A DNA stretch of 33,013 bases from Candidatus Brockarchaeota archaeon. Its GTDB lineage: Archaea > Thermoproteota > EX4484-205 > DTQO01. Positions 24,220 to 33,013 of this stretch are shown here, piece after piece (positions within the stretch are counted from its first letter, which is position 1; every line of letters starts with the position of its first letter). The stretch lies in NCBI GenBank assembly GCA_017601265.1, contig JAFNJA010000005.1:1-33013 (forward strand), in the 5' to 3' direction. Both the position numbers and the translations under genes were made by a program. The notes under the pieces were generated by a model. It made no database searches. It worked only from the letters and a program-made list of their open reading frames with translations, and was not told the DNA's origin.

Positions 24220-26139
24220 ATGACCAGCTTCGACGTCGCGGCCGTGGTGGAAGAGCTCGCCGGCAGGCTCGTTGGAGCGAGGGTCATGAACGTCTACCAT
24301 CTTGCGGACTCCCAAGCCGTCATATTAAGGTTGAGGCTCGAGGACCAGAAGGAGCTCCTCGTCCTCCAAGCCGCCAGGAAGGTTTGCCTCACCCAGTACG
24401 AAGTCGCCGTTCCAAAGGCGCCGTCCCAATTCGCGGCGCAGCTTAGGAGGGAGGTGAACGGCGGCGTCATAGAGGGGGTGTCCCAGCTGGGTTTCGACAG
24501 GATCGTTTCGATCAAGATCAGGGCGGGCGAGAGGCGTTTCGAGCTCTTGGCCGAGCTGCTTCCGAGGGGGAACGTGGTGCTGCTTGAAGAGGGCGTCATA
24601 AAGGCCGCCCTTTTCAGGAGGGCGATGAGGGACAGGAGGGTGTGGAAAGGCGAGAGGTACAAGCCGCCGCCTTCGAACACCCTGCACCCAGAGGAGCTGA
24701 GGCGCGAGGACCTGGCGGCTCTCCTTGATTCGGACGAGAGCGTCGGCAGGGTTCTCGCGAGAAGGCTCGGTTACGGCCCGCCTTACGCCGACGAGATCTG
24801 CATCAGGGCCGGAGTGGGGGCGGGAGAACCCGCGAGCGCGATGGGCCCGGAGGAAACGCGTAGGATACTGGATTCCGCGAGGAAAGTGTGCGCGATGGCG
24901 AAGGGGCGCGAGTCGCCCAGGATCTACAGGGATTCCAACGGCGTTCTCGTCGGGTTTTCGCCGTTCGAACTCCTTGCATACTCGCGGCATTCGCATGAAG
25001 AGTACGGGACGATGAACCAGTTGGTTGACGATTACTTTGCTGAATTGGAGGCGGCGGAAAAGCGGGCGATGAGGGAGAAAGCCAGGGCCGAGGATGAGGA
25101 GAAAAGGAGGGAATCGGTCAGGAGGCTCAAGGAAACCGCGGACGAGATGCTGCGGAGGGCGAAGTCGCTGAGGGAAGCCGGAAGCGCCTTGTTCGGCAAC
25201 CTGGGCGCGTTCCAGGAGGCGGTCGATTCGGCCAGGTCTGGAAAGGAGGCCGCTACCTTCGGGCCCGTCAAGCTGCTCGAGGCGACAGGCGGGAAGGAAG
25301 GGAAGCTTAAGGTGGATGTCTCCGGCAACGTGCTAGAATTCCCCGCGAACGCGGACGCGGCAAAGATCGCCTCTTCGCTGTTCGACGAAGCCAAAAGGCT
25401 GGAAAGGGACCGCGAGAAGTTGGCCGCGAAGATCGGGGAGCGGGAACGGATGGCCGGACGAGTGAAAGAGGAAACCGGGGCCGAGGCGCCGGTGAAGAGG
25501 AAGAGGAAGGCTTGGTACGAAAGCTACAGGTGGTTCACCTCCTCGGACGGAATCCTCGTGGTCTGCGCAAGGGACGCGTCCTCCAACGAAGCCCTGGTCA
25601 AGAAGCACTCCAAGCCGGAAAACCCGGTTTTCCACTCGGAAGTTACGGGAGCCCCTTTCGTCCTCGTGCAGGCGGATTCCGAAAAAGTCCCGCAAAGCAC
25701 GCTCGAGGAAGCGGCGCAGATGGCGGCAAGCTACACGACAAGGGCGTGGCAAGCGGGGTATTCTTCGCTGGACGTCTTCTGGGTAAGGGCCAGCCAGTTG
25801 ACGAAAACGCCCCCGTCGGGCGAGTACTTGGGGAGCGGGGCGTTCGTCGTCAGGGGGCGGAAGAATTACATCAGGGGTTCGCGGCTCATGCTCGCGGTTG
25901 GAGCGGTAAGGGAAGAAGGAGCCTTGAGGATCGTCGCGGCTCCCGAAAGGGCGGTTGCCAGCAAGACGGCCACTTACGTGAGGATCGCCCCTGGCAGTAT
26001 CGAGAAAAGGAAACTGGCCCAGATGGTCAAGGCAAGGCTCGTGGCGCTCGCCCCTTCGGATGAAAAAAGGGAGATCGAGGCCGTGCCAACGGGGGACATC
26101 TCGTCCATCATGCCTGGCAAGAGCGGGGAGATCGTTTAG
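24220..26139 (+). CDS. rqcH: NFACT-family ribosome quality control protein (RqcH/Rqc2/NEMF homologue, formerly FbpA-like/DUF814).
   Basis: About 639 aa from ATG 24220. The NFACT-N start is MTSFDVAAVVEELAGRLVGARVMNVY. A central coiled coil is rich in E/K/R. The NFACT-R/DUF814 region is WYESYRWFTSSDGILVVCARDASSNEALVKKH...VFHSEVTGAPFVLV. Confidence 0.85.
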   Translation: MTSFDVAAVVEELAGRLVGARVMNVYHLADSQAVILRLRLEDQKELLVLQAARKVCLTQYEVAVPKAPSQFAAQLRREVNGGVIEGVSQLGFDRIVSIKIRAGERRFELLAELLPRGNVVLLEEGVIKAALFRRAMRDRRVWKGERYKPPPSNTLHPEELRREDLAALLDSDESVGRVLARRLGYGPPYADEICIRAGVGAGEPASAMGPEETRRILDSARKVCAMAKGRESPRIYRDSNGVLVGFSPFELLAYSRHSHEEYGTMNQLVDDYFAELEAAEKRAMREKARAEDEEKRRESVRRLKETADEMLRRAKSLREAGSALFGNLGAFQEAVDSARSGKEAATFGPVKLLEATGGKEGKLKVDVSGNVLEFPANADAAKIASSLFDEAKRLERDREKLAAKIGERERMAGRVKEETGAEAPVKRKRKAWYESYRWFTSSDGILVVCARDASSNEALVKKHSKPENPVFHSEVTGAPFVLVQADSEKVPQSTLEEAAQMAASYTTRAWQAGYSSLDVFWVRASQLTKTPPSGEYLGSGAFVVRGRKNYIRGSRLMLAVGAVREEGALRIVAAPERAVASKTATYVRIAPGSIEKRKLAQMVKARLVALAPSDEKREIEAVPTGDISSIMPGKSGEIV

Positions 26140-26160
26140 GGCGATCGACTAAAGCTTAAA

Positions 26161-26451
26161 TTGCCGGGCGAAGATGAACTTCCAGGCGAAATGTCCGGGC
26201 ACCTGGCGGTCGGCGTCCTCCTCTTCGCGCTCAGCATCGCGATCATGCTCGTCTACGTGGCAGCTTCGATTGTTCCAAGCATCTTGGCAGCCCCGTTTGG
26301 AATCACCGCGGAGAAGCTGCAGTTCACCCTCGTCTTCGTCCCGGTCGCTTTGGCCATGATCGGGGTATCGATAGGCGTGGCTTACGTGGGTTACTCGATC
26401 GTGAAGGAGTCCCAGGAAAGGAAGGGGCCGGAAAAAGAGGAAAAGGGATGA
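26161..26451 (+). CDS. Small membrane protein (96 aa from TTG 26161, alternative ATG 26191).
   Basis: Two or three hydrophobic helices (LAVGVLLFALSIAIMLVYVAASIV, FTLVFVPVALAMIGVSIGVAYVGYSIV) and a charged tail. Starts 21 nt after rqcH. Its stop overlaps the next start (ATGA). Confidence 0.55.
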   Translation: MPGEDELPGEMSGHLAVGVLLFALSIAIMLVYVAASIVPSILAAPFGITAEKLQFTLVFVPVALAMIGVSIGVAYVGYSIVKESQERKGPEKEEKG

Positions 26452-26954
26452 GCACGGGGGGGCGTTCCGGAAACGCGGGGAGGAGCCCCGCCGCGGGTTT
26501 CATGCTCGGAGTCTCAGCCAGTTTCCTCGCCCTCCTTCTCGCGACGATGGCGGCGCAGCTCCTTGAAGCCACCCAGGCGGCCTTCGGGCTCCGCTCGCTT
26601 TTCGAGTACGCGTTCGTCCCTTTGGTCGTGCAAAGCTGCCTCGTATCGATGTACATGCGGGGGAGGGTCGCGGGCCTCTTGCTTCCCCTGGCATCCACGA
26701 TCGCTGGGACGCTCCTTTTCCTGGCGGTAATGTTCATGCCTTCGCTGCCGCTCACGGTGATCGTTCCGACGATGTACAACGCCATGATCGCGAGCGTTCT
26801 CGGAGGCGTGGTCGGAACCGCCGCGGGCGGGGCGAGGATCGGCAAGGTGAAAACCTACAACTCGGATTCGAAGCCGAGGACTTGTTGGGCGTGCGGTTCT
26901 GAGATCCCGCCAGGGGCGTTCTTCTGCCAAAGGTGCGGGGAAAAGGCGAGATGA
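26448..26954 (+). CDS. Membrane protein with a C-terminal zinc ribbon.
   Basis: 168 aa with 4-5 hydrophobic helices, then CWACGSEIPPGAFFCQRCG (CxxC-x10-CxxC). Start and stop overlap both neighbours. Confidence 0.6.
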   Translation: MSTGGRSGNAGRSPAAGFMLGVSASFLALLLATMAAQLLEATQAAFGLRSLFEYAFVPLVVQSCLVSMYMRGRVAGLLLPLASTIAGTLLFLAVMFMPSLPLTVIVPTMYNAMIASVLGGVVGTAAGGARIGKVKTYNSDSKPRTCWACGSEIPPGAFFCQRCGEKAR

Positions 26955-28228
26955 TGGCCGACGTGGTTTCGGTCTCCCTGCCCTATGGAAAGGGAGCGGT
27001 CGACTGCAAGCTTCCGAGGCGGAGGGTCAGGGGCGTTCTGGAACCGAGGGAGGTGGAGGCCGGGCTTCCGCCCGGGGACGTGCTCGCTGCAGCGCTCAGG
27101 CGGCCGATCGGGATCGCTGGCAGGCTTGGACGGCTCGCGAGGGGCAGGAAGAAGATCTTGTTGATAAGCAGCGACCAGACGAGGCCCGTGCCGAGCAGGA
27201 TCACTCTCCCCCTCCTCCTCGACGAGATATCTTCGAAGGAAGCCGAGGTCAAACTGCTGATCGCGACCGGGCTGCATTCCCCGCCGTCGAGGAGCGAGAT
27301 GGAGGAGAAGTACGGGAAGGACAACCTTGAGAGGTTCTCCCAGATCATAATTCACAGGAGCTCGGAGGATGACGAGCAGTTCCATGCGGGGAGGCTGTCC
27401 ACGGGCATGGAACTCGAGGTCAACAAGGAACTGATGGCTGAGGGTCAGCTGACGATCGCTGAGGGCTTCATAGAGCCCCATTTCTTTGCGGGCTTCACTG
27501 GCGGCCCGAAGAGCGTCCTACCGGGAGTCGCTGGCGCGAGGAGCATCATGTTCAACCACTCCGCGGACAGGATAGACGATCCGCTTTCGAGGAGCGGCGT
27601 GCTCAGGGGCAACCCGATACAGGAGGAGATGAGGGAGGCTTCGTTGAAGGCGGGGCTCGGGTTCGTGCTGAACGTCATCTTGGACGGAAAGAAGGAGATA
27701 GCCGGGGCGGTCGCGGGGGAGACGCTAGCCGCCCACGAAGCCGGGTGCGCGATGGTATCGGAGCGCAGCAAGGTAAAGGCGGCGCCCTCCGAGATAGTGG
27801 TGACATCGAACAACGGCTTCCCCCTCGACAGGAACCTTTACCAGATGGTGAAGGGGTTGTCGGCGGCGGCTTTGACGGTGAAGCGGGGGGGCGTCATTGT
27901 CATAGTCGGGGAGTGCGTCGACGGCGTAGGGCACGGGAAGTTCCAGAAGATGCTGGAAGGATCTGAGAGCCCGGAGGACCTGCTCCTGAAGATAAGGAGC
28001 GGGGAGATCAACGAAGAGGACCAGTGGGAGGCGCAGATCCTTGCGAAGGTTCTCGAGATCGCGAGGGTGATCGTCGTGAGCGGGGGCCTCAAGAAGAGCG
28101 TCGTCGAGCGCATGCACATGCTCCACGCGTCATCATTGGAGGAAGCGCTCGACAGGGCTTTCGAGCTGGCTGGTCCGGAAGGAAAGGTGACCTTCCTTCC
28201 CAGGGGGCCCGCCACGATCGTCGCTTAG
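26951..28228 (+). CDS. larA: LarA-family nickel-pincer-cofactor-dependent racemase/epimerase (lactate racemase-like, DUF2088).
   Basis: About 425 aa. ATG overlaps the upstream stop (ATGATG). IATGLHSPP, FIEPHFFAGFTGGPKSVLPGVAG and FNHS correspond to the LarA His/Lys cofactor and catalytic regions as I recall them. Confidence 0.8.
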   Translation: MMADVVSVSLPYGKGAVDCKLPRRRVRGVLEPREVEAGLPPGDVLAAALRRPIGIAGRLGRLARGRKKILLISSDQTRPVPSRITLPLLLDEISSKEAEVKLLIATGLHSPPSRSEMEEKYGKDNLERFSQIIIHRSSEDDEQFHAGRLSTGMELEVNKELMAEGQLTIAEGFIEPHFFAGFTGGPKSVLPGVAGARSIMFNHSADRIDDPLSRSGVLRGNPIQEEMREASLKAGLGFVLNVILDGKKEIAGAVAGETLAAHEAGCAMVSERSKVKAAPSEIVVTSNNGFPLDRNLYQMVKGLSAAALTVKRGGVIVIVGECVDGVGHGKFQKMLEGSESPEDLLLKIRSGEINEEDQWEAQILAKVLEIARVIVVSGGLKKSVVERMHMLHASSLEEALDRAFELAGPEGKVTFLPRGPATIVA

Positions 28229-28767
28229 GAAAAGCGCCCCCGTCTCTTACCCTGACCGCGGGAAAGGGCCTTGGCCAAGAAGGACGCGATCTCATTCGCC
28301 GCGCATTCGACCTCGGGAGTCAGGCCGGTCCCGAAATCCGAACGCCCCGGCTGGATGAGCAGCAGCGCGATCTTCGCTTCCGTCTCCTTCTCGATGAGGT
28401 TGCAAAAGATCGAGAGGGGGAGGGAGTGCGTCGAGACCGAAGAGATCGAAGCCAATTCTCCGGGGTCTGCCAACGTCCTGTATCCTGGTTCTCTTCCCAA
28501 GGCCGCGGCGTCGATGAGCAAGACGTGGGTGGGTTTGAAATTGGCTATGGGCTGGACGAAGTTCTCCGGGACGGTTTCGCACTCCGCCAAGTAAACGTTC
28601 TCCGGAACCTTGCCGCGCAAGTCTTGGACGATCTTGACCCCGACGGAATCGTCCATCCTGAGCGGGTTCCCAATCCCCGCTACAGCGACGCGCCCAGCTT
28701 CGGAGAGCCACCTCGAGAGCTTCCTTTCGGCCCCCATCGAGCCAGCGCCTTCGAAGCGGCTTCCCAT
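28225..28767 (-). CDS. hycI: [NiFe]-hydrogenase maturation endopeptidase (HycI/HybD family). The start is 28767 or ATG 28737.
   Basis: VAVAGIGNPLRMDDSVGVKIV, LLIDAAALG and VSTHSLPL are typical of the maturation protease. It is divergent from the hydrogenase operon. Confidence 0.82.
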   Translation of the reverse strand: MGSRFEGAGSMGAERKLSRWLSEAGRVAVAGIGNPLRMDDSVGVKIVQDLRGKVPENVYLAECETVPENFVQPIANFKPTHVLLIDAAALGREPGYRTLADPGELASISSVSTHSLPLSIFCNLIEKETEAKIALLLIQPGRSDFGTGLTPEVECAANEIASFLAKALSRGQGKRRGRFS

Positions 28768-28969
28768 ATCCGTTGCTCTTCCCGAGGGCGTATTCGAAGC
28801 GCCGGATGGACTAAGGGGGCCAAAATCCCGCCTTCAGTTCGGGGCGGTTTGGACGAACGCTTAAAGCGCGCAGGAAGGCGCGTTAAGTTTAAATCCAACC
28901 GCTTTCGCCGCGCTTCGGGTTCGGAACTACCTGAAAGGAGGCGGCGTATGAACGTTAGAAGATTCGGCT

Positions 28970-29278
28970 GTGGCGCTTGCGAGCATCTTGGCCGTCTCGG
29001 CCCTCATATACCTTCTCGGTAGGTCAAAGGCGCCGAAGCCCGGAAGGAGCGCGGAAAAGCTCTCCGCGTACGCTTGCGGCGAAAGGGTCCGCCTCGGCAG
29101 GCTGGCGATAGACGTTACGTTGTGCAACTACCTCGTTTACTTCACGATCCTCGACTCGGCTGTCCTAATTTTGGCCTTCGCATCCCCGGAGGTAGTTCAT
29201 GCGGGATTCGCGACGTTGATGACCTACATTTTCACGGTACTGGCAGCCGCGCTCCTGCTGTCTTTTGGTGGTGAATGA
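28970..29278 (+). CDS. NuoA/ND3-like membrane subunit of the hydrogenase complex.
   Basis: 102 aa. An N-terminal TM helix is followed by KLSAYACGE (compare K..PYECG in NuoA) and YLVYFTILDSAVLILAF. The stop overlaps the next start. Confidence 0.7.
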   Translation: MALASILAVSALIYLLGRSKAPKPGRSAEKLSAYACGERVRLGRLAIDVTLCNYLVYFTILDSAVLILAFASPEVVHAGFATLMTYIFTVLAAALLLSFGGE

Positions 29279-29709
29279 TGCCCAGGCTTGGGCTCTTGGA
29301 GTGGGCGAGGAAGAGGTCTCCCTGGATGCTTCACTTCAACAGCGGAGCTTGCAACGCGTGCGACGTGGAGGTGGTGGCGCTTCTGGCGCCCAGGTACGAC
29401 GTTGAGAGGTTCGGCGTCCTCAACAACGCAACCCCTAGGCAGGCGGACATCCTGGTCGCTACCGGGCCGGCGACTAGGCAAGCGGCACCAAGGTTGGTGA
29501 GGACCTACGAGCAGATGCCGGAACCGAAGTTCGTCATCGCCGTCGGGACGTGCGCCTGCTCCGGAGCGCCCTTCAAGACGTGCTACAACGTCCTTTGCGG
29601 CGTTGACAAAGTGGTTCCGGTCGACATGTACGTTCCCGGATGCCCGCCAAAGCCCGAGGCGATCCTCTACGGAATAACCAAGCTCCTGGACCTGAAAAAC
29701 GGAGGTTGA
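29275..29709 (+). CDS. Group 4 [NiFe]-hydrogenase small subunit (NuoB/PSST-like).
   Basis: 144 aa. The cluster ligands are CNAC, GTCACSG and PGCPPKPEAI. Confidence 0.9.
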   Translation: MMPRLGLLEWARKRSPWMLHFNSGACNACDVEVVALLAPRYDVERFGVLNNATPRQADILVATGPATRQAAPRLVRTYEQMPEPKFVIAVGTCACSGAPFKTCYNVLCGVDKVVPVDMYVPGCPPKPEAILYGITKLLDLKNGG

Positions 29710-29734
29710 GGGCTTGTCCGCGGAGGAGGAGGCA

Positions 29735-31384
29735 ATGGAAGCCATTTCCAAAAGGTTGGGCGAGAGAGCGCAGGAATGCAGGATCGCGGCACCCAGGAGG
29801 ATCTGCGTTCTTGTCAGGTGCGGATCGCACAGGGACGCCATCTCGGCGCTCCTCGAGCGTTTCGAGTTCACGACGATCTCGACGATAACGGGCGTCGACC
29901 TTGGCGAAGATATCGAGCTGAATTACCACCTCTGGTGCGGGAGGACGGAAGTTACGGTGAAGACAAGGTTGCCGAAGATCAGGCCCGATGTTGAAACCGT
30001 GACCGACATCTTGCCGGGCGCAGCCCTTTACGAGAGGGAGGCGTTCGAACTGCTCGGCGTCAGGTTCCTGGGCCACCCAGGGCTGAAAAGGCTTGTGCTT
30101 CCGGATTCGTGGCCCGAGGGGCAGTACCCGCTCAGGAGGGATTGGAAACCCGAAATCGCAGGCTTGGAATTCCCGCAAGAAGCGGATTCGGTCGCCATCG
30201 GAGCGGAGGGGGAGAATCGAGGTTCGACCGTAAACGTCGTCTTCGGCCCTCAACACCCTGCCCTGCACGAGCCCGAAAGGTTTCTTTTCAAGCTTGACGG
30301 GGAGATCGTCGTCGATGTCGAACCGCGACTGGGGTACGCCCACAGGGGCATAGAGAAGGGAGCAGAGAAGCTCATGTTCTTCCAAGCGACCCACCTGATC
30401 GAAAGGATTTGCGGCATATGCAACGTGGCGCACGCCACCTGCTTCTGCCAAGCTGTTGAGTCCTTGGGCGGCATCGAGGTCCCGCCGAGGGCCAGTTACC
30501 TGAGGACGATCGTGCACGAGCTCAACAGGTTGCACAGCCACCTTCTCCTACTCGGAGTTGCCGGCATGGAGATCGGGTTCGAGACGCTTTTCCAATACTC
30601 GTGGCGCGACAGGGAGATGGTGCTGGACCTTACCGAGAAGGCGACGGGAAACAGGATCATGGCGGAATACAACGCGATAGGGGGCGTGAGGAGGGATCTT
30701 GACCCGATCGTTGGGGAGGAGATGAAGAAGGTGTTGTCAGGGATCAAGAGGCGCGCGGCCTTCTACAAGAAACTTTTGGGCGAAGATCCAACATTCGGGT
30801 TGAGGACGAGGGGGATCGGGGTCCTAAAGGCTGCCGAAGCCTTGAGGCTGAGCGTCGTCGGGCCGGTCGCCAGGGGGTCGGGCATCAAGATGGACGTGAG
30901 GAGGCACGACCCGTACGCTGCGTACGGGGAGATTCCCTTCGAGGAGGTCGCGTACGGGGAGGGCGATTCCTGGGCCAGGTTCATGGTTAGGTTGGACGAG
31001 ATCGCACAAAGCGTCGATATCGTAAACTACGCGATAGAAAAACTTCCGAGCGGCCCATACAGGGCAAGGGTTCCGAGGAGGGTTCCGGAGGGGGAAGCGC
31101 TCGGCAGGGTGGAGGCTCCGCGCGGAGAACTCGTCCACTACGTGAAGAGCGACGGCACCGCGTACCCGCAACGCGTCAAGGTGCGGAGCCCCACGCTGGC
31201 GAACATAATGTCTTTCAGGGAGATGATCAGGGGATGCTACGTCGCGGACATACCCGCGGTCCTAGCAAGTTTGGACCCGTGCTTCTCCTGCACGGACCGC
31301 ATGGCTTTCCTCGACGTTAAAAGCGGAATGAAGTGGTTTTGGAGCTTGGAGGAGATCAAGAGGAGGAGGCTCGGAAAGCCGTGA
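29735..31384 (+). CDS. Group 4 [NiFe]-hydrogenase large subunit fused to an N-terminal NuoC-like domain (NuoCD/HycE-like architecture).
   Basis: ATG 29735 is preceded by GGAGGAGGAGG (alternative TTG 29714). The NuoC part is YEREAFELLGVRFLGHPGLKRLVLP. The NuoD part is FGPQHPALHEP. The NiFe ligand motifs RICGICNVAH and DPCFSCTDR are followed by a 27-aa C-terminal extension. Confidence 0.92.
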   Translation: MEAISKRLGERAQECRIAAPRRICVLVRCGSHRDAISALLERFEFTTISTITGVDLGEDIELNYHLWCGRTEVTVKTRLPKIRPDVETVTDILPGAALYEREAFELLGVRFLGHPGLKRLVLPDSWPEGQYPLRRDWKPEIAGLEFPQEADSVAIGAEGENRGSTVNVVFGPQHPALHEPERFLFKLDGEIVVDVEPRLGYAHRGIEKGAEKLMFFQATHLIERICGICNVAHATCFCQAVESLGGIEVPPRASYLRTIVHELNRLHSHLLLLGVAGMEIGFETLFQYSWRDREMVLDLTEKATGNRIMAEYNAIGGVRRDLDPIVGEEMKKVLSGIKRRAAFYKKLLGEDPTFGLRTRGIGVLKAAEALRLSVVGPVARGSGIKMDVRRHDPYAAYGEIPFEEVAYGEGDSWARFMVRLDEIAQSVDIVNYAIEKLPSGPYRARVPRRVPEGEALGRVEAPRGELVHYVKSDGTAYPQRVKVRSPTLANIMSFREMIRGCYVADIPAVLASLDPCFSCTDRMAFLDVKSGMKWFWSLEEIKRRRLGKP

Positions 31385-32376
31385 TACTGGATACGCGCTT
31401 CTTCTTCAGGGTACTCGTCTTCCCCGGATTCCTGTTCCTCTTCTCGTTCACGCTCTTCTGCGACTGGTTCGAAAGGAAGGTCATGGCCAGGATGCAAAAC
31501 AGGATGGGGCCTTCCTACGCGGGTCCATTCGGGATCCTCCAGCCCTTCGCGGACTGGGTCAAGTTGCTAACCAAAGAAGACATCGTTCCCGAGGGCGCTG
31601 GTGGGCTTGCGCTTGCCATCGCTCCGATAATCTCATTTTCCTTGCTCGTGCTGTCGATGCTTTACTTCCCATTGGACGGCGCGAACGCCTTCTCCAACGA
31701 AGGATTCGAGGGCGACCTTCTTCTCGTCCTGGCATTGGTGACGTTCGCCAACTTCCTTCTGTTCCTCTTGGGCTGGTCATCCTCGAACCCTTACAGCGGG
31801 ATCGGGGCCGTCAGGATCATGACCCAGTTCGTCGGTTACGACATACCGCTCACGATCCTGTCTTTGGGGCCGGCCTTTTTGGCAGGAAGCTTGTCATTAT
31901 CTAGGATAGCCTCGGTCCAGAAAGTGCCTTTCGCTCTTGTAATTCCATGGGTCTTCGCGTTTTTCCTTCTTGCCCTTCAGGCAGAGCTCGAGGAGGACCC
32001 CTTTGACACGCCACACGCAGAGACCGAGATAGCGGCAGGTTACTGGACAGAGCTCACAGGCAGGAAGCTGGCCTTCGTCCGCTTTTCTGAAGACCTCCAA
32101 GTTGTCTTCGGGGCAGTGCTTGCTGCCGACCTGTTTTTAGGTGGCCCGTATGGGCCAGCGTTCGAGCTTGGACATGGTTTGCCTATAGTCTGGTTCGTCC
32201 TGAAGGCCCTTTTCATTATATTCATGCTTGAGTTCGTCGAGGCGGTTTGCGCACGACTCCGAATAGACCAAGTGGTTAGGACTAATTGGAAGCTGATGGT
32301 CCCCCTCTCGCTTCTCTCCTTGGCACTTGTGACATTTTGCATTCCATTCGTTCAGTCAGCAACGGGAGGAGCCTGA
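31381..32376 (+). CDS. NuoH/ND1-like membrane subunit (HycD/MbhM/EchB family).
   Basis: GTG overlaps the upstream stop (GTGA). Contains ERKVMARMQNRMGPSYAGPFGILQPFADWVKLLTKEDIVP and multiple TM helices. Confidence 0.9.
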   Translation: MILDTRFFFRVLVFPGFLFLFSFTLFCDWFERKVMARMQNRMGPSYAGPFGILQPFADWVKLLTKEDIVPEGAGGLALAIAPIISFSLLVLSMLYFPLDGANAFSNEGFEGDLLLVLALVTFANFLLFLLGWSSSNPYSGIGAVRIMTQFVGYDIPLTILSLGPAFLAGSLSLSRIASVQKVPFALVIPWVFAFFLLALQAELEEDPFDTPHAETEIAAGYWTELTGRKLAFVRFSEDLQVVFGAVLAADLFLGGPYGPAFELGHGLPIVWFVLKALFIIFMLEFVEAVCARLRIDQVVRTNWKLMVPLSLLSLALVTFCIPFVQSATGGA

Positions 32377-32379
32377 GAG

Positions 32380-32745
32380 TTGGGGAGGGTTAGGCTGCCG
32401 CGGATGGCGGTGGAGGTTGTCTCATCGCTTTTCAAGAAGTCATCTACACGCAAGTATCCTTTCGAGAAGCCGATCGTTCCACTCGGCTCGCGCGGGATGC
32501 AGGTCTTCCATTCGGTGATGTGGCACGGCTGTGGACTGTGTCCCAGGGACTGCCCTGCGGGTGCGATCGAGATGGTAGAAGTTTCGGGCAAGAAGATGCC
32601 GCTCATACGCATAGACAGCTGCATATTTTGTTACGTCTGTGTCGAAAACTGCCCAAGGAAAGCTCTGACGGAATCGAACTTAGCTGGCCACCGCGGACAA
32701 AGAGGAGCTCGTCATCAGGCCAGGAGGGAGCCCTCCGAGCGCTGA
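32380..32745 (+). CDS. NuoI-like 2x[4Fe-4S] ferredoxin subunit (MbhN/HycF/EchF family). The 3' end is probably frameshifted.
   Basis: The N-terminus RVRLPRMAVEVVSSLFKKSSTRKYPF is MbhN-like. The motifs are WHGCGLCPRDCP and CIFCYVCVENCP. The R-rich tail after TESNL looks off-frame. Confidence 0.8.
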   Translation: MGRVRLPRMAVEVVSSLFKKSSTRKYPFEKPIVPLGSRGMQVFHSVMWHGCGLCPRDCPAGAIEMVEVSGKKMPLIRIDSCIFCYVCVENCPRKALTESNLAGHRGQRGARHQARREPSER

Positions 32746-32792
32746 AACCTCTAGGGGGGATTAGGACGTTCGCTTACGACAACCTTTTCGCC

Positions 32793-33013
32793 ATGGCGAT
32801 ACTCGTTTCGGCCTTCATGGCGTTGCATCTCGAGAACATCACGCATGCCGTGATCTCATTCGCTGTAGCTCTTGTAGCTCTTTCTGCCCTTTACTTCTAC
32901 GTAGAGGCTCCTTTCGCAGCGATCTTCCAACTTGTGGTCGGAGCTGGAACTATCGCCGTCTTTCTCCTTGCTGGCGAGATGCTCTCTCCGAAAGGGGAGA
33001 AGGCCCAGAGGCT
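32793..33013 (+). CDS. NuoJ/ND6-like membrane subunit. It is partial (runs off the right edge), and the true N-terminus probably lies upstream of the first ATG.
   Basis: The frame through 33013 is open and not in the ORF track. LENITHAVISFAVALVALSALYFYVEAPFAAIFQLVVGAGTIAVFLLAGEML matches the NuoJ pattern (RN.IH....Y..L.A.F.A..Q..VY.GAI.VLFLF). Confidence 0.65.
   Translation, partial: MAILVSAFMALHLENITHAVISFAVALVALSALYFYVEAPFAAIFQLVVGAGTIAVFLLAGEMLSPKGEKAQR

Follow-up and report, generated by a model that had tools for sequence, protein, structure and literature searches.

In 2021, Loh, Hervé and Brune described Hfo, an Fpo-like [NiFe] hydrogenase of 11 subunits from the Bathyarchaeia subgroup Bathy-6 (PMC7886697). 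Hfo was assigned by HydDB to subgroup 4g (the 4g-6 lineage of that paper), was presented as the first [NiFe] hydrogenase with the 11 subunits and the gene order of Fpo and Nuo, and was discussed as nearer to complex I than the hydrogenase Mbh (PMC7886697). The same cluster, with its L1 and L2 motifs, was found in 2023 in the cultivated Bathyarchaeum tardum (PMC10477458), and clusters of Bathyarchaeia have been interpreted as Fpo-like by Qi et al. (PMC8407382). In this article, we analyse a stretch of 33,013 bp (the window), which is a complete contig (JAFNJA010000005.1) from a metagenome-assembled genome (MAG) labelled Candidatus Brockarchaeota, and which carries in its last 4.8 kb (28225-33013) the genes of a complex-I-like [NiFe] hydrogenase in the order A-B-CD-H-I-J. 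Judging by gene order, conserved motifs and phylogeny, we consider it likely that these genes open an operon for an energy-converting [NiFe] hydrogenase of the Hfo type, organised like complex I.

A first-pass annotation made from the letters of the window had read the locus as a genuine hydrogenase with complex-I-like organisation, a reading which the Ni-Fe motifs and the A-B-CD-H-I-J order support. The novelty that it implied does not hold, because the large subunit falls in the described Hfo lineage, which has the same gene order (PMC7886697, PMC10477458), and the window clusters with Hfo; the systems chosen for comparison at that stage (Ech, Coo, Hyc and Mbh) covered only biochemically characterised enzymes. 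The kind of enzyme has been known since 2021, and the window adds a member in a sister subclade.

The comparison set consisted of 84 related loci (referred to as L001 to L084) from species-representative genomes and metagenomes, and of 27 close homologues of the large subunit that span 58-100% identity. Domains of the window proteins were called with Pfam and NCBIfam scans. One of the loci, L003 (GCA_038852595.1), is a second independent assembly with 99.66% nucleotide identity to the window over 8.2 kb (window 24613-32842).

Catalytic module, family placement and maturation

The fused large subunit CD carries the four Ni-Fe ligands Cys233, Cys236, Cys523 and Cys526 in the motifs RICGICNVAH and DPCFSCTDR, which the first-pass annotation had reported as intact. 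All four are invariant in the 27 close homologues and in all 84 loci. Not one of the four columns holds a cysteine in E. coli NuoCD, Thermus Nqo4, Aquifex NuoCD2 or chloroplast NdhH, where the complex-I references show Asp, His, Val and Asp or similar residues instead. Since the ligands are invariant across homologues and loci and the CD gene of L003 is identical, the Cys motifs are not an assembly artefact. The position of Tyr87, which binds quinone in Nqo4, is Gly in CD (CGIC aligned to DYLH). The adjoining subunit B has the pattern CNAC...GTCACSG...PGCPP, in which the first two cysteines form a CxxC, the arrangement of E. coli HycG, where NuoB has a tandem CC.

Similarity scores place both catalytic subunits on the hydrogenase side. 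Both give better scores with their E. coli Hyc counterparts, HycG for B and HycE for CD, than with NuoB and NuoCD (for B, blastp gives 124 bits with HycG vs 112 bits with NuoB). Among solved structures, full-length CD is best matched by E. coli HycE (299.7 bits) and the D domain alone by MbhL (275 bits), followed by HycE (252) and Nqo4 (243). CD passes the NCBIfam NuoD model NF004739 by 3.8 bits (363.8 bits, cutoff 360) and fails the FpoD model (312 bits, cutoff 600). It is because CD just clears the NuoD model that the family is named NADH-quinone oxidoreductase subunit C/D in GenBank; the public names are 'NADH-quinone oxidoreductase subunit C' at NCBI and, for many homologues, 'formate hydrogenlyase subunit 5' at JGI. 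NADH-quinone oxidoreductase names given by annotation pipelines hide hydrogen metabolism in genome surveys. By its sequence, the protein set has the hallmarks of a genuine H2-handling group-4-type [NiFe] hydrogenase, save that the eight-Cys pattern of the 2x[4Fe-4S] subunit is altered at one position (see below), and the enzyme that it predicts joins the catalytic module of a hydrogenase to a membrane arm of complex-I type.

The beta1-beta2 loop of CD reads GPQHPALHEPE (window 30260-30292, residues ~178-188) and has His at the position of Nqo4 His38. The loop combines features of the complex-I form GPQHPSTHG with those of the Mbh form GPIHPGLEEPE.

The relationship of the window to published Hfo was evaluated with a neighbour-joining tree of the D domain (357 columns, 90 sequences, 100 bootstraps). 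The references were E. coli HycE, HyfG and NuoCD together with MbhL, Nqo4, NdhH and Aquifex NuoCD2, the last four rebuilt from PDB alignments and, for Nqo4, NdhH and Aquifex NuoCD2, with internal stretches missing. In this tree, the hydrogenase-type sequences split from the complex-I references with 100% bootstrap, and a single clade (81%), which includes both the window and published Hfo, takes in all loci with fused CD, the majority of which have complex-I order. Within it there are two sister subclades: 1) a group with 100% bootstrap that contains published Hfo (L067, L068), the complete Bathy-6 genome (L045) and Bathycorpusculum (L057), and 2) a group with 91% bootstrap that contains the window, L001, L002, L004-L013, L015 and L062. 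The anchor to the literature is L067, which is MAG Lab288P3_bin169 (WRCX00000000) of the Hfo paper and has the order A-B-CD-H-I-J-K-L with CD fused and the ligands intact. The large subunit of the window is 59-80% identical to members of its own subclade and 48-52% identical to those of the published-Hfo subclade; its tree distance is 0.70-0.72 to published Hfo, 1.13-1.18 to HycE/HyfG and 1.11 to MbhL. We infer that the window enzyme belongs to class 4g from its clustering with sequences that were classified as 4g (PMC7886697). The description paper of the Brockarchaeota reported only group 3b and 3d hydrogenases for the phylum, and the range of the Hfo family is now extended to a MAG with this label.

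Two further observations concern the taxonomic spread of the loci. Archaeal-type Hfo loci occur in two bacterial MAGs, L062 (CAYTTK010000009.1, 'Pirellulales bacterium') and L052 (DATIXS010000195.1, 'Candidatus Acidoferrum sp.'); both nest among Bathyarchaeia sequences and are probably mis-binned contigs. Three Chloroflexota MAGs (L078-L080) carry large subunits with 42-43% identity, intact Ni-Fe ligands and C-terminal tails, which branch outside the Hfo clade; their gene order is also different, being J-K-L-N-B-C-D-H-I-HycI in L079.

The two subclades differ at the C-terminus of the large subunit. Every member of the window's subclade has an extension of 25-33 residues after DPCFSCTDR; in the published-Hfo subclade the protein ends at the Arg of this motif in nearly all cases, the exception being L023 with 10 extra residues. 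The extension of the window protein has exactly the 27 residues counted in the first-pass annotation. The HycI-type protease which that annotation placed divergently beside the operon is likewise found again, with a Pfam HycI match (Table 1) and a score of 97.8 bits (cutoff 47.45) against the NCBIfam superfamily model TIGR00072 (hydrog_prot); the score against the hycI equivalog model, 105.5 bits, is below its cutoff of 119.1. Its identity to E. coli HycI is 26%, with the GxxxxDD, xDA and TH motifs in register; we take the aligned Asp, Asp and His to be metal-binding residues. The 27-residue tail and the adjoining HycI-type gene fit endopeptidase-dependent maturation. As the tail is found in one subclade and is missing from the other, and as a HycI-type gene stands beside the window operon, two maturation modes are probable, the window's subclade probably maturing like HycE and the other one like tail-less large subunits.

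The gene layout is given in Table 1. The first-pass calls of NuoA, NuoB, fused NuoCD, NuoH, NuoI and NuoJ agree with the Pfam and NCBIfam scans, and all reading frames of the hydrogenase and the protease are intact. The weak NuoA-like call is backed by orthologues in L001 and L002 that are assigned to Oxidored_q4. The ATG of nuoH overlaps the CD stop codon, a start that is supported by the gene call of L003. HfoI scores below the cutoffs of the NCBIfam NuoI and FpoI models, and HfoJ, whose start is uncertain (the first ATG is at 32793), is 60% identical to J of L001.

Table 1. Features of the hydrogenase locus, in window coordinates.
Feature	Position	Strand	Basis
HycI-type hydrogenase maturation endopeptidase, 180 amino acids	28225-28767	-	Pfam HycI E 2.4e-13; divergent from operon
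Divergent spacer between hycI and operon, 202 nt	28768-28969		Read from sequence
TATA-like TTTAAAT, candidate promoter element	28889-28895		Read from sequence
HfoA / NuoA-like membrane subunit, 102 amino acids, GTG start	28970-29278	+	Pfam Oxidored_q4 E 6e-4, under gathering score
HfoB / NuoB-like putative hydrogenase small subunit, 144 amino acids, one proximal [4Fe-4S]	29275-29709	+	Pfam Oxidored_q6 E 3.5e-30
HfoCD, fused NuoC-like + putative [NiFe] large subunit, 556 amino acids	29714-31384	+	Pfam Complex1_30kDa, NiFeSe_Hases, Complex1_49kDa
HfoCD L1 motif RICGICNVAH, residues 231-240	30404-30433	+	Sequence motif
HfoCD L2 motif DPCFSCTDR, residues 521-529	31274-31300	+	Sequence motif
HfoCD C-terminal extension, 27 amino acids	31301-31381	+	Residues after DPCFSCTDR
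HfoH / NuoH-like membrane subunit, 331 amino acids	31381-32376	+	Pfam NADHdh E 1.8e-85
HfoI / NuoI-like 2x[4Fe-4S] subunit, 121 amino acids	32380-32745	+	Pfam Fer4_7, Fer4_9
HfoJ / NuoJ-like, N-terminal ~84 residues, cut by contig end	~32760-33013	+	NCBIfam NuoJ NF005168 E 8e-10

A LarA-like gene (Lar_N + LarA_C) at 26933-28228 on the plus strand converges on hycI with a 4-nt overlap. LarA belongs to the lactate racemase family with a nickel-pincer cofactor, and the two neighbouring genes are both nickel-related, which may be a coincidence. The other genes of the window are housekeeping or metabolic ones, including CDC48, phosphoglucomutase, amidase, FGGY kinase, ornithine cyclodeaminase, aminotransferase and others. 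At the far end, two adjacent minus-strand open reading frames (1-1867 and 1883-2521) both match DUF6785, the first also DUF6784; they are unrelated to the hydrogenase and could be paralogues or the parts of a split gene.

Membrane arm and predicted mechanism

The operon is truncated in nuoJ by the end of the contig, and the rest of it is unreadable in the present genome. The contig of L003 is shorter and likewise stops inside nuoJ. The two assemblies differ at 28 positions, of which 23 lie in nuoH (18 of them synonymous) and 3 in nuoI; the A, B, CD and HycI genes are identical. Since both contigs stop in nuoJ and the differences cluster in nuoH and nuoI, the pattern suggests that strain heterogeneity breaks the assembly at this point. 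A look-up with the exact sequence of the large subunit returned only L003 as a candidate for the continuation, a search with NuoM of L001 returned zero hits labelled Brockarchaeota, and the best NCBI candidate was discarded, being from an unrelated metagenome assembly.

The first-pass annotation had expected the operon to run on beyond the contig end. This is seen in the relatives, where J-K-L-M-N follow, although no continuation was found for the present genome. The closest relative, L004 (80% identity), has I-J-K before its own contig ends, and both L001 (70%) and L005 (63%) continue with I-J-K-L-M-N. The complete order A-B-CD-H-I-J-K-L-M-N with fused CD is found in about 55 of the 84 loci. 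The L001 operon holds only Nuo-type Pfam families and a gene of the FrhB-CBS type (see below), with no Mrp, formate dehydrogenase or NuoEFG genes, and a standard Mbh-type arrangement, which the first-pass annotation had named as a possible downstream outcome, is not what is found there.

The membrane subunits resemble complex I more closely than they resemble formate hydrogenlyase. HfoH of the window gives 146 bits with E. coli NuoH vs 78 bits with HycD in blastp, and the same preference for E. coli Nuo over Hyc/Hyf is seen in the scores of K, L, M and N of L001. We compared residues of the membrane subunits in L001, L005, L007, L012, L014, L022, L062, L045, L057 and L030, with the key positions of complex I numbered by the E. 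coli sequence and checked against it. The kept residues are E144, K229 and K399 in the L-like subunit, E144, K234 and E407 in the M-like subunit, E133 and K395 in the N-like subunit and E36 in the K-like subunit. HfoA keeps the residue that aligns with Asp79 of E. coli NuoA, and HfoH keeps most of the conserved acidic residues of NuoH.

These comparisons lead to the following proposed mechanism. In the peripheral arm, subunit B would carry one [4Fe-4S] cluster, the fused CD the Ni-Fe site and subunit I two [4Fe-4S] clusters. By homology with Mbh, formate hydrogenlyase and complex I, electrons would pass from the surface cluster of I to its second cluster, then to the cluster of B and to the Ni-Fe site in CD. 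Structures are established for these enzymes (6CFW, 7Z0S and 4HEA). The H+/H2 couple would exchange electrons with a low-potential carrier. This is most likely ferredoxin, as is assumed for all 4g enzymes (PMC7886697), and it would dock at I. Turnover at the Ni-Fe site would be coupled, via the loops of H and A and via J/K, to the antiporter-like subunits L, M and N and thereby to ion translocation across the membrane. The large subunit would be made as a precursor, from which the HycI-type protease would remove the 27-residue tail after Ni insertion. Since the Brockarchaeota have been described as fermenters that release H2 (in the description paper of the phylum), the favoured direction would be the oxidation of ferredoxin with release of H2, building membrane potential. 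The reverse direction, H2-driven reduction of ferredoxin at the expense of the membrane potential, was proposed for acetogenic Bathy-6 (PMC7886697).

The predicted entry point of electrons is altered in the window. In subunit I, the first iron-sulfur motif (residues ~45-60) reads W-HG-C-GL-C-PRD-CP, with Trp in place of the first cysteine (Cys1) and His adjoining the Trp. All the other loci (more than 70) have C-IS-C-GL-C-xRD-CP with Cys1 kept, except L003, which has the same Trp. A frameshift or assembly error was rejected as the source, since neither alternative frame restores the family sequence and L003 has the same residues. By analogy with NuoI-type ferredoxins, we take this motif to build the cluster farther from subunit B, which would be the electron entry point. 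The replacement could mean a cluster held by three cysteines, ligation by the neighbouring His, or a damaged subunit.

The same spot is altered in another way in subunit I of derived Bathy-6-type sequences, where ~20 residues are inserted after Cys1 and before Cys2 in the first motif (C-NxIDxGxG...-C-xVC). The insertion is found in L030, L034, L037, L038, L040, L041, L043, L045-L050, L053, L054, L056, L057, L059, L061, L064, L067, L068 and L074.

Several points weigh against an active Hfo-type hydrogenase in the present genome. First, neither this family nor HydDB subgroup 4g has a biochemically characterised member (PMC7886697), and it is for this reason that H2 activity of the window enzyme is a matter of inference. 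Second, subunits K to N are attributed to the present operon on the strength of its relatives, the window itself holding only A to J. Third, the family placement comes from a neighbour-joining tree with few outgroups and not from a maximum-likelihood tree with the HydDB reference set. Fourth, four key residues of complex I are altered throughout the family: in NuoM, K265 is replaced by E, G or S; in NuoN, K217 by E and K247 by D; and in NuoK, E72 by a hydrophobic residue. Fifth, it is difficult to see how the small span of energy from ferredoxin to H2 could suffice for three antiporter-like modules; E. coli Hyf poses the same puzzle. Sixth, the Trp of subunit I could impair or alter the electron entry cluster. 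Finally, there are no hyp genes within the 33-kb window.

The FrhB-CBS gene and other readings of the locus

The best-surviving alternative concerns the electron partner and arises from a gene seen in the relatives. Its protein, of ~505-525 amino acids, combines Fer4, FrhB_N, FrhB_C and two CBS domains, an architecture shared by all 13 copies. The gene lies directly 3' of nuoN on the same strand, with a gap of 10-110 nt or an 11-nt overlap, in L001 (18827-20365), L005, L007, L009, L010, L012, L013, L014, L022, L024 and L065, and as a fragment in L062; no locus of the window's subclade whose contig extends far enough is without it, and basal members of the other subclade have it too. A position ~0.9-1.3 kb upstream is found in four more loci (L020, L021, L033, L039). 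When five FrhB-CBS proteins were picked only for having long contigs, four of them (L090-L093) were found directly after a group-4-hydrogenase/Nuo-like cluster; in L091 this is subunit I of an unfused, differently arranged A-B-C-D-H-I cluster. The linkage to nuoN was not found described in the searchable literature, which is no proof that it has never been described.

The gene could be a genuine subunit in the window's subclade, docking on the peripheral arm as FpoF does on Fpo and linking H2 with F420. The complex would then act as an H2:F420 or F420H2:H+ oxidoreductase, instead of or besides using ferredoxin, and the CBS pair would possibly be an adenine-nucleotide gate. We put this forward as a tentative proposal that is rather unlikely as a whole. 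Besides the linkage and the constant architecture, it is favoured by the best solved relatives of the protein, which are F420-binding FrhB-type subunits (8riu_B, 3zfs_C), and by two remarks in the Hfo paper, which calls it unclear where Hfo-bearing Bathyarchaeia obtain F420H2 and notes FrhB homologues in the absence of FrhAG (PMC7886697). However, the gene is not visible in the present genome, where the contig ends in nuoJ and the search for the continuation failed; adjacency is not physical association; one of the five sampled copies (L089) is unlinked; and the Bathy-6 Hfo loci have no FrhB-CBS gene nearby. The protein also scores under the NCBIfam cutoffs for FrhB and FpoF (115-119 bits for FpoF vs cutoffs of 444-475), and a pump with three antiporter-like subunits could draw very little free energy from the H2/F420 couple. 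In published work, FpoF was stated to be absent from these complexes (PMC7886697; PMC8407382) and FpoFO from Hfo (PMC7886697). If the proposal were true, the complex would be an Fpo with protons replacing methanophenazine, or an Frh mounted on a complex-I membrane arm. It would answer the question of the F420H2 source left by the Hfo paper and would represent a second intermediate form on the path from hydrogenase to Fpo and complex I, and the CBS pair might regulate it by cellular energy charge.

A second alternative is that the operon is decaying in the window lineage and that the enzyme is inactive, the loss of Cys1 in subunit I being the first lesion. The replacement is unique among more than 70 loci and is found in both assemblies, which speaks for decay, but all frames are intact, the two assemblies agree fully in CD, B, A and HycI, the nuoH differences are 18/23 synonymous, and the neighbouring His could replace the lost ligand. 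We consider decay very unlikely.

It is likewise highly improbable that the locus encodes an NADH-quinone oxidoreductase or an Fpo-like complex that reduces quinone, phenazine or, via HdrD, heterodisulfide rather than protons. The arguments for such a complex are the NCBI name, the NuoD model passed by CD, the membrane subunits nearer to E. coli Nuo than to Hyc/Hyf, the His kept at the Nqo4 His38 position, and the description of Bathyarchaeia clusters as Fpo-like (PMC8407382). They are outweighed in the catalytic module, where the four Ni-Fe cysteines are invariant over a large and diverged family and lost in the complex-I references, Tyr87 is replaced by Gly, and subunit B has CxxC and not CC. 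A tail of the cleavable type with a HycI protease, the absence of NuoEFG from the window and from L001, and the failure to find methanophenazine biosynthesis genes in Bathy-6 (PMC7886697) argue in the same direction.

A formate hydrogenlyase-type enzyme, coupling formate oxidation to H2 release, is barely credible in spite of the JGI naming, the top match of full-length CD to HycE among solved structures and the fused C-D, C-terminal tail and HycI protease in common with HycE/HyfG, since there is no HycB-like or formate dehydrogenase gene in the window or in the full operons of its relatives, the hyc/hyf gene order differs, and HycE/HyfG are more distant than Hfo in the tree. Both this arrangement and the Mbh/Mrp type were rejected on gene content.

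Comparison with known complexes

The Hfo-type hydrogenase predicted here shares features with each of the well-known group-4 hydrogenases and complex-I-type enzymes. With the E. coli Hyc/Hyf complexes (PDB 7Z0S), it has in common the fused NuoC-NuoD-like subunit and a C-terminal extension, which in HycE/HyfG is 32 residues long and removed by HycI; Hyf also has three antiporter-like subunits. It differs in that Hyc/Hyf have their own gene order and the formate-linked HycB/HyfA and FdhF, and their membrane subunits are less like those of the window than the Nuo subunits are.

In Mbh of Pyrococcus furiosus (group 4d, PDB 6CFW), MbhL provides the best match to the D domain, homologues of NuoB, C, D, H and I are present, and the enzyme is energy-converting and of the ferredoxin type. 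However, Mbh has an Mrp-type Na+ module, one antiporter-like subunit, separate C and D and another gene order (see also PMC7886697), and there is no Mrp module in the L001 operon; the same point has been made for Hfo (PMC7886697).

Fpo and the Fpo-like complexes of Methanothrix and Methanomassiliicoccales share the 11 core subunits, their order and the three antiporter-like subunits, and an FpoF-like gene (Fer4 + FrhB) is linked to the operon in relatives of the window. In contrast to CD of the window, which keeps the Ni-Fe ligands, FpoD lacks them (PMC7886697); no FpoO was seen at the loci, and the acceptor would be protons and not methanophenazine.

Complex I (Nuo/Nqo) has the same order of the shared genes, a CD fusion in E. 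coli and Aquifex, and the GPQHP loop with the equivalent of His38, and it is nearer to the loci than Hyc/Hyf are in H, K, L, M and N. Unlike complex I, the window enzyme has the Ni-Fe cysteines, Gly at the Tyr87 position, CxxC in subunit B and a tail with its protease, and there is no NuoEFG in the window or in the L001 operon.

Hfo remains the closest match, with the order A-B-CD-H-I-J(-K-L-M-N), fused CD, intact L1 and L2, and subunit B with CxxC; NuoEFG, Mrp or formate modules are not seen in the operons of relatives of the window. The differences are 1) the tail of 25-33 residues in the window's subclade and the HycI neighbour in the window, published Hfo ending at DPCFSCTDR, 2) the FrhB-CBS gene after nuoN in relatives of the window, for a family in which FpoFO was reported absent, 3) the ~20-residue insertion between Cys1 and Cys2 of subunit I in Bathy-6, which the window's subclade lacks, and 4) the Brockarchaeota label of the host MAG, with large subunits 48-52% identical. 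At the level of sequence, nothing known bridges proton-reducing hydrogenases and respiratory complex I more closely than the Hfo family, a concept published in 2021 to which the locus adds little. What remains of interest is seen mainly in the relatives of the window: a family divided into two subclades with apparently different maturation logic, an extension with a protease in one and neither in the other, and, in one subclade, a conserved FrhB-CBS partner gene, which would change the predicted physiology if it encodes a real subunit.

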